From Octopus sinensis (lineage: Eukaryota): a DNA stretch of 64,000 bases. Shown piece after piece: positions 9,500-38,851 of the stretch. A program made the position numbers and the translations under genes. Where the stretch lies: positions 3,596,001-3,660,000 of the forward strand of contig NC_043011.1 of assembly GCF_006345805.1 (NCBI RefSeq), written 5' to 3'. The notes beneath the pieces were generated by a model. That model ran no database searches, was not told the origin of the DNA, and saw nothing but the letters and a program-made list of their open reading frames with translations. Every line of letters begins with the position of its first letter. The first letter of the stretch is position 1.

Positions 9500-10615
9500 G
9501 CCCATGTTTGTCTCCCCAGCATCGCCTGACAATCAATGCTGGTGTGTTTACGTCCCTGTAACTTAGTTCAGCAAAAGAGACAGACAGAATAAGTTCTAGG
9601 CTTACAAATGTTAGTCCTGGGGTTGATTTCTTCAACTACAAAAATATCTTTTAACCCTTTCGTTACTGTATTTATTTTGAGATGCTCTGTATTTCTTTCG
9701 ATTACTTTAAATATAACAAAGAATTTAGTAAAATAACTTGGTTATCATTCAGCTAGTGTTAGGAACATAAATTGTGACTAAGGTTTGGCGGAAGATTTTA
9801 ATTCAAAACTTATGAAAATAAGACATTTATACTCAGAGCCAGAGGCGGTTTCAGCCAGATTGGTATCAAAAGGGTTAAATATAACAAAGAATTTAGTAAA
9901 ATAACTTAGTTATCATTCAGCTAGTGTTAGGAACATAAATTGTGACTAAGGTTTGGTGGAAGATTTTAATTCAAAACTTATGAAAACAAGACATTTGTAC
10001 TACAGAGCCAGAGGCGGTTTCAGCCAGGTTAGTATCAAAAGGGTTAAATATAACAAAGAATTTAGTAAAATAACTTAGTTATCATTCAGCTAGTGTTAGG
10101 AACATAAATTGTGACTAAGTTTTGGTGGAAGATTTTAATTCAAAACTTATGAAAACAAGACATTTGTACTACAGAGCCAGAGGCAGTTTCAGCCAGGTTA
10201 GTATCAAAAGGGTTAAATATAACAAAGAATTTAGTAAAATAACTTAGTTATCATTCAGCTAGTGTTAGGAACATAAATTGTGACTAAGTTTTGGTGGAAG
10301 ATTTTAATTCAAAACTTATGAAAACAAGACATTTGTACTACAGAGCCAGAGGCAGTTTCAGCCAGGTTAGTATCAAAAGGGTTAAATATAACAAAGAATT
10401 TAGTAAAATAACTTAGTTATCATTCAGCTAGTGTTAGGAACATAAATTGTGACTAAGTTTTGGTGGAAGATTTTAATTCAAAACTTATGAAAATAAGACA
10501 TTTGTACTCAGAGCCAAAGCTGGTTTCAGTCGGGTTGGTAACAAAAGGGCTAAGGTGGTGCTTCAATATGGTGGCAGCCAAATGACAGAAACAAGTAAAA
10601 GAAAAGTAAAAGAAT
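9500..10615 (+). mobile_element. SINE family C 3' half split by a MITE array
   Basis: SINE sequence stops at TTAA 9651 and resumes ggtggtgcttcaatatgg at 10554. Confidence 0.7.
9651..10553. repeat. piggyBac-type MITE with five tandem ~169-bp units
   Basis: TTAA-CCCTTT left end; unit junctions at TTAA 9707, 9875, 10044, 10213, 10382 and CTAA 10550; single-unit copy at 39781-40008. Confidence 0.9.
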
Positions 10616-26348: not shown

Positions 26349-26409
26349 AACCACCTGAAGAATGTCTCAAAGATGTGCTGAAATAAGACATGAAACGATC
26401 GTAGTGGTT
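26349..26409 (+). ncRNA. Minimal type I hammerhead ribozyme
   Basis: AACCAC CUGAAGA AUGUCU (18 nt) AGACAU GAAA CGAUCG UA GUGGUU. Confidence 0.85.
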
Positions 26410-37892: not shown

Positions 37893-37916
37893 GTATATAT
37901 ATACATACATATATAT

Positions 37917-38115
37917 GCAGCACGGATTTTTATCAGTGAACAGGTCGCCGTCTTAAAGCGACGAAAATATTTTGACAAATTAAACTTAAATGTTGAAGTG
38001 AATCGAACGGCTTTTGTGTGTTTCTTAAATGGCTTACACCTTCCACGCTGCAATTGTTTTCGTTTCAGCACACGATCTCAGATCAAATCACTTGCTATGC
38101 AAGTACATCTCCGTA
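37917..38115 (+). mobile_element. PLE-derived fragment in (TA)n
   Basis: TA flanks; contains the G3-C8 hammerhead variant. Confidence 0.6.
37929..37979 (+). ncRNA. Hammerhead variant with G3-C8 core
   Basis: UUUAUCA GUGAACA g GUCGC cgucuuaaa GCGAC GAAA AUAU UU UGACAAA. Confidence 0.65.
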
Positions 38116-38136
38116 ATATATATATATGTATATATC

Positions 38137-38550
38137 CATTTATTCTTTTATTCTTTTACATGATTCAGTAATTGGACTCTAGCCATGCTGGAGCATCGCT
38201 TTTAGTCAAACATAATGACCCTAGGACTTATTTTTTGTAAGCCTTGTATTTATTCTATCAGTCTCTTTTTCCAAACAGCTAAGTTTCGAGGATGTAAACA
38301 CACCACCATTGGAAGTCAAGTGATGGTGGTGGGGGGGGGGACCAAACCCAGACACAAAGGCACACATACATAAATATATATATACATATTTATATACACA
38401 ATGGGCTTCTTTCAGTTTCCATCTACCAAATCCATTCACAAGGCTTTGGTCAGCCTGGGACTCCAGTAGAAGACACTCGCCCAAGGTGCCATGCAGTGGA
38501 ACTGAACCTGGAACCATATGGTTGGGAAGCAAGCTTTTTACCACACAGCC
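38137..38550 (-). mobile_element. SINE family C, older copy
   Basis: Reverse complement of the family C layout. Confidence 0.8.
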
Positions 38551-38851
38551 ATATATCTGTGTGTCATTGTGTCTGTGTTTCTCTCCCACCACCACTTGAC
38601 AACTGGTGTTGGTTTGTTTACATTCTCATAACATAGTAATTCAGTAAAAGGACCATTAGAATAAATATCAGACTTAAAAATGTCCTGGGGTGAATTCATT
38701 CAACTAAAATTTTCCCAGGTTGTGCCCCAGCACTGCCATAGTGTAGTAAATGAAACAAATCAAAAATAAAAGACATATAAATACACACACACTCACACAT
38801 ATTTACATATCTCTCTCCACCTCTCTCTCCCTCTCTAACTATATTTCTCTT

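Follow-up and report, generated by a model that had tools for sequence, protein, structure and literature searches.

Can a natural hammerhead carry both nucleotides of its 3-8 core pair in exchanged form, and would such a swap reflect a constraint on pairing rather than on the letters themselves? The question is raised by positions 37929-37979 (+) of the window analyzed here, a 64,000-nucleotide stretch of the Octopus sinensis genome (3596001-3660000 of its contig, NC_043011.1). The hammerhead core box has the consensus C3 U G A N G8 A9 (CUGANGA), and its 3-8 pair has been proved by laboratory swaps. The literal box is absent from the window motif, which differs at positions 3 and 8; a Watson-Crick G3-C8 pair could form instead, as judged from the sequence alone.

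Architecture of the motif in the window

Direct reading of the window letters confirms a hammerhead-like motif at this place, described here with hammerhead position numbering and in a putative register taken from the hammerhead consensus and sister families. On the + strand, the 5' arm of helix I (37929-37935) leads into the core box G3 U4 G5 A6 A7 C8 A9 (37936-37942, with G3 at 37936, C8 at 37941 and A9 at 37942), which is followed by an extra G between positions 9 and 10.1 (9.1, at 37943). Helix II (37944-37948/37958-37962) has five Watson-Crick pairs, including G10.1-C11.1, and encloses the variable loop II (37949-37957); G12 A13 A14 (37963-37965) then precede A15.1 (37966), the first base of a palindromic helix III of six bases (37966-37971, U16.1 at 37971) that is predicted to pair between two molecules. 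U17 (37972) would be followed by the predicted cut (37972/37973) and by the 3' arm of helix I (37973-37979), in which one A-C mismatch (37932/37976) breaks a pair; most family copies have G at 37932, completing helix I, and the A of the window copy is a private change. The window motif thus has U4 G5 A6, A9, G12 A13 A14, A15.1-U16.1, H17, G10.1-C11.1 and a base at 9.1, each of which is present in 95-100% of 158 copies, a sample partly selected by those same letters.

The original prediction, made from the letters of the window, had named GUGAACA in place of CUGANGA, a perfect 5-bp stem II and a stem I with one mismatch, and all three are borne out. Its palindromic stem III survives in part: a 10-base palindrome is present (37964-37973), but the hammerhead register allows helix III in the central six bases only. 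The motif it described is real, although the extra G at 37943 and the host element had been left out.

With positions 3 and 8 left free, a hammerhead descriptor returned 61 matches in 464 kb (51 of this family and 10 others) versus 1 in reversed sequence, and a stricter descriptor returned 185 in 1.53 Mb of overlapping loci enriched for the family, versus 1 in reversed and 1 in complemented sequence; descriptor matches exceed chance. Five motifs were found in the 64-kb window by the free descriptor, all with a palindromic helix III though none was required, and a later descriptor added a sixth. The further motifs of the window, likewise with palindromic helix III, have position 3 at 26355 (+), 25254 (-), 2316 (-), 36311 (-) and 26919 (+); four of these five are C3-G8, two of them identical, inverted and separated by 1.1 kb, and one is U3-A8. 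That C-G, U-A and G-C versions occur within one window, as had been stated, is correct (C-G four, U-A one, G-C one). A tandem repeat (unit 169 bases, 5 copies, 97% matches) occupies 9707-10553.

Folding of the window copy is no better than that of shuffles (z -0.16; opposite strand, z -2.17), a consequence of its private G>A at 37932; modelled pair probabilities in helix II are 0.80-0.86 in this copy and 1.0 in an intact one. In the family form, stems I and II are the best structure (z -3.40 and -2.59), with pair probabilities of 0.87-1.0 in both helices, outermost pair excepted. The opposite strand scores z -3.41, so that folding leaves the strand undecided. In a modelled dimer, helix III, whose six-base palindrome in this family is A/U, brings no added stability over the same fold without it. 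Rfam at gathering score gave no match in the window, a null that is uninformative since Rfam also passed over the canonical C3-G8 motifs there, and a PDB sequence search returned no match.

The repeat family and its host element

The motif lies in a ~200-base unit flanked by TA runs (37915-38117, +). This unit is a Penelope-like element's 3' end (pLTR) in a copy cut short at the 5' side; it sits inside a (TA)n tract and is 91-97% identical to other copies over this span. Searches of the 2.7-Gb genome found at least 7,004 places matching a 17-letter family pattern, versus 6 for a control pattern. Copies stop near 38056 or near 38117, the intervening stretch (38057-38117, +) being an optional 3' tail, and their 3' ends cluster at +144-150 in 83/254 and at +200-215 in 145/254 copies. 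Many form head-to-head pairs whose outward-facing 3' ends fall at two fixed points; upstream sequence is retained in 574. Variation among subfamilies is concentrated in loop II, and one subfamily of more than 100 copies (L344-L373) has two bases inserted in the helix I 3' arm. Directly downstream of the window copy lies another abundant repeat (38146-38551), 67-88% alike to copies at many loci.

In four of 35 rows, two of them duplicates, the arms of inverted pairs come from different loop-II subfamilies (L040, L201, L217 and L221), as if two RNA templates had entered one insertion. Of 26 copies that meet other DNA at the usual 5' end (just before 37915), 18 carry an extra G ahead of that end, where the genomic pLTR has C or T in 48/48. 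Such a G would fit a copied RNA cap or, alternatively, a spliced leader, given the likeness of the sequence upstream of the family 5' end to a branch point and splice acceptor. Assembled contigs of four runs cover the repeat, in a form from which ends and strand are unreadable. The window copy itself, with one stem I pair lost, is probably inert and derived from a short RNA that had not been cut.

Longer family copies run, on the same strand as the motif, into an RT plus GIY-YIG ORF, and the ORFs of these copies (793, 722 and 1,042 aa stop-to-stop) contain RT motifs, a CX3CxxC linker and a GIY-YIG domain with CCHH, the linker (CX2-5CxxC) and the CCHH of the endonuclease having been matched by eye from one translation. 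The DKG motif of the RT reads DKS. Pfam recognizes GIY-YIG on a 225-aa fragment only (E 3.6e-5) and nothing on two long ORFs at E 0.1; in an atlas comparison, look-alike proteins of the family ORFs carry RT, HTH_animal and GIY-YIG. The window copy is without this ORF. In the longer copies the motif is located ~1 kb past the ORF stop; within 1.5 kb of 26 RT loci of the family we find a G3-C8 motif at 15, G3·G8 at 2 and none at 9, and a relaxed descriptor applied to one element returned the G3-C8 motif as its sole hammerhead-like match. Because the longer copies end a Penelope-like element, the motif of the window repeat corresponds to its pLTR minimal hammerhead; the family shows a pLTR with this motif, an inverted 5'-truncated partner, the optional tail and (TA)n targets. 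The host appears to be a C-terminal EN+ Penelope-like element of Neptune/Nematis type, a clade assignment made by motif. Readings as Helitron, MITE or SINE were rejected after the longer copies led to the RT and GIY-YIG ORF. Coding constraint on G3 was likewise set aside: the motif lies behind the stop, and the one full-length ORF copy viewed has no pLTR ahead of the ORF, though in tandem copies the motif may overlap an ORF start.

Pairing at positions 3 and 8

Among 3,943 pattern-matched copies with stem II and GAAA intact, 3,638 (92%, across all subfamilies) retain G3-C8; the others are G3·G8 (124), G3 with U8 or A8 (96) and non-G3 (85). C3-G8 was found in none of the 3,943, and none of the 85 non-G3 copies has G8, which eliminates a C3-G8 subfamily among them; one older copy of the family (L171) has U3-G8. 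Family copies with uninterrupted ORFs have G3-C8. The element has thus spread in the G3-C8 form, and all its copies count as one evolutionary event. Around this pair, U17 is present in 149/149 descriptor matches of the family; within the family, variable positions number 1 of 39 in core and stems and 13 of 110 in flanks, a difference short of significance (P=0.12).

Position 8 changes often in this family. The 124 G3·G8 copies compare with 4 C>G changes at a control C (~30x), the corresponding figures being 67 vs 54 for C>T and 29 vs 7 for C>A. G3·G8 copies occur in all subfamilies, inverted pairs that contain G8 mostly have it in a single arm (12, vs 1 with G8 in both, by eye), and double changes at positions 7-8 are recurrent. 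Descent of the G8 copies as one sub-lineage was rejected, as they show no association with a stem I marker (6:11 vs 7:7, P=0.48). The excess may reflect a copying hot spot at position 8 or minor G3·G8 source elements.

A sister family at ~55% protein identity has a homologous motif behind its ORF, with C3-G8 in 19/19 RT-linked loci and with three further compensatory double changes relative to the present family, in helix I, helix II and 15.2-16.2. Its commonest form (L131-L149; 2,678 genomic matches) has C9, either C17 or U17, and a helix III that is not palindromic; by hand count, A9C is present in 86 of the first 100 of these matches, and this spread shows that core changes are tolerated in the clade. 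A pattern requiring Y3/R8 and A9 is matched by 903 relatives, the first 100 of which are C-G (81), U-G (13), C-A (4) and U-A (2), again counted by hand, and older related families (L153, L172-L181) have a U3-G8 wobble, with few U3-A8. Outside the clade, with 3 and 8 free, we count C-G 5, U-A 7 and C-A 2, after seven rows of the present family and one sister row were reassigned by eye; both C-A rows resemble listed C-G families.

To examine covariation, we aligned 28 hand-picked, related rows, 27 of which have G at 9.1. Individual pairs vary in stem I (U-A 12, C-G 7, U-G 7), helix III (G-C 14, G-U 7, A-U 4) and stem II (A-U 17, G-C 7), and the covariation score is 0.256, compared with 0.150±0.016 for shuffled and at most 0.127 for slid alignments, kinship being uncorrected in this score. 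These three covarying pairs lay outside the search pattern, which partly built in the 100% pairing at 3-8. The family departs from consensus at two of 11 near-invariant core positions, exactly those that pair, and in Watson-Crick fashion; by our own arithmetic the odds of this coincidence are ~1/55 x 1/3, uncorrected for a case picked in advance.

Because unrelated families have C-G or U-A and the sister family C3-G8, the original inference of constraint on the 3-8 pairing, not on its letters, holds at the family level, and the counts above show G3 mostly with C8 and, in other families, C-G or U-A. We infer that the swap is derived and compensatory; its direction, C3-G8 to G3-C8, is suggested by position 3, a pyrimidine in every sister group and in the published consensus.

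Predicted cleavage and comparison with known hammerheads

We favor, with a probability of roughly 0.68, a minimal type I hammerhead in a Penelope pLTR whose ancestor likely swapped C3-G8 for G3-C8. The swap would have been kept because the pair is needed, and weak self-cleavage of the RNA after U17 is therefore predicted, probably in a dimer that the element's protein assists. In the hammerhead of PAc (Poseidon, Anolis), the C3G/G8C double mutant partly restores activity, and PAc needs the element's protein (Frangieh et al. 2024, PMC11167929); partial rescue by the 3-8 swap is also reported in a general review (PMC8495972). The 3-8 pair forms in a catalytically poised conformation, and G17 is stated to suit G3-C8 better than C17 does (PMC3884650, data not shown in that paper); the present family has U17. 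Published minimal hammerheads cleave slowly and as dimers. Several observations count against this reading: a single row among 56 published Penelope hammerheads has G at 9.1 (PMC4209133), the G3·G8 excess would allow for sources whose 3-8 pair is broken, core and stems are weakly protected relative to flanks, the dimer fold gains nothing from helix III, and A9C in the sister family is a core change that is not compensated.

We propose that the pLTR likely contains a promoter and that, by analogy with PAc, reverse transcription would be initiated internally, either ~145 or ~205 bases in, and would yield many short copies such as that in the window. The hammerhead, 17-66 bases in, would fold, with its palindrome paired to a second RNA or with a protein holding it; the cut after U17 would be slow, and uncut RNA seemingly the main template. 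A bolder version, which we consider doubtful, posits an active G3-C8 hammerhead, fixed in nature, in which U17 (avoiding a G3-C17 trap) and protein make up for the cost of the swap, with the copies recording capped short RNAs, two-RNA inverted insertions and a position-8 hot spot that regenerates the G·G intermediate.

Alternatively, the motif might be a hammerhead by descent that has lost cleavage, its fold now a protein-binding or RNA-dimerising handle for retrotransposition and G3-C8 structural, an explanation that we regard as unlikely yet worth serious attention. Copy ends show no clear pile-up at the predicted cut. The 51 matches to predicted-cut junctions, 30 of which were examined, gave 16 clean, 6 ambiguous, 7 with internal changes and 1 duplicate (~27 clean when scaled); junctions one base earlier were clean in 16/20 and one base later in 11/13, and two bases past the cut 4-6 of 30 examined (of 184) were clean. 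Copies starting at the cut are thus at most ~2x those at neighboring bases; a frequent small deletion made one further control unusable. In a sample biased to whole motifs, the majority of copies contain the complete motif and begin upstream of it, and so derive from uncut RNA. Insertion by PAc in vitro does not require cleavage, and no RNA-seq ends are reported at its cut site (PMC11167929); the inverted pairs of mixed subfamily and the spread of A9C in the sister family also favor loss. On the other hand, U4 G5 A6 A9 G12 A13 A14 A15.1 U16.1 are all retained in the family, the 3-8 pair belongs to the poised conformation (PMC3884650), and the laboratory swap is partly active (PMC11167929, PMC8495972).

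Neutral decay, with two unrelated changes fixed in the source element and complementary by luck while the pair was unselected, appears highly improbable. It would accord with a single event, with the core drift (A9C) of the sister family and with the frequent changes at position 8, but all family-level states are paired (C-G, U-A, U-G and G-C), the other core positions stay intact from one subfamily to the next, unlike loop II, and 92% of copies hold G3-C8. A chance DNA or RNA hairpin near the element end we dismiss, despite the equal folding of the opposite strand and the absence of an Rfam match, as the motif shares its pLTR location and ORF-strand orientation with Penelope hammerheads, its column-for-column homology to the canonical CUGANGA/GAAA motif of sister families largely refutes it, and Rfam missed the canonical motifs as well.

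The weakly cutting G3-C8 hammerhead that we favor would leave hammerhead chemistry unchanged. The need for cleavage in Penelope hammerheads is described as an open question (PMC11167929, 10.1101/2021.04.23.441226), and thousands of G3-C8 copies beside C-G, U-G and A9C sisters form a natural series on whether these hammerheads must cut. Descriptor searches that fix CUGANGA overlook entire families.

Minimal type I hammerheads (min-HHR) occupy the pLTRs of metazoan Penelope-like elements, and an extra base between 9 and 10.1 is their hallmark (Cervera & de la Pena 2014, PMC4209133). They resemble the present family in pLTR location on the ORF strand, the extra base, G10.1-C11.1 and a short palindromic helix III, and in their mostly solitary truncated copies and opposite-strand pairs; U17 is also frequent in their C3-G8-type motifs (24/56 rows of Fig. 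S3, by hand count). In contrast to the G3-C8 and 9.1 G found here, those 56 rows have C3-G8, U3-A8 or U3-G8 only, and the descriptors used fixed position 3, so they could not have caught G3-C8. Natural C3-G8 and U3-A8 are already in print (PMC3088659, PMC4209133), and the U3-A8 variants on record (Perreault et al. 2011, PMC3088659) are, like G3-C8 here, natural covariation of the 3-8 pair; U3-A8 takes two transitions, with a U-G wobble step possible, whereas G3-C8 takes two transversions via G·G or C·C. An incomplete survey of the literature, including the 56 motifs of PMC4209133, found no natural G3-C8 hammerhead.

Neptune/Nematis EN+ elements (Craig et al. 2021, 10.1101/2021.04.23.441226) share with our family the RT, the CX2-5CxxC linker, GIY-YIG with CCHH, the inverted 5'-truncated copy, the tail and (TA)n insertion; they differ in having DKG where we find DKS and a tail of 30-40 rather than ~60 bases. 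PAc likewise has two 3' ends, AT-rich targets and a tail, defined there as the stretch between two RT start sites (PMC11167929), a definition that we carry over to this family by analogy. Its ORF begins inside stem II, whereas here an ATG 14 bases ahead of helix I meets a stop inside 14 codons in that one frame. The same swap in PAc was engineered and partly active, whereas here G3-C8 is the natural state of a family, which is likely the natural counterpart of a variant otherwise made in the laboratory.
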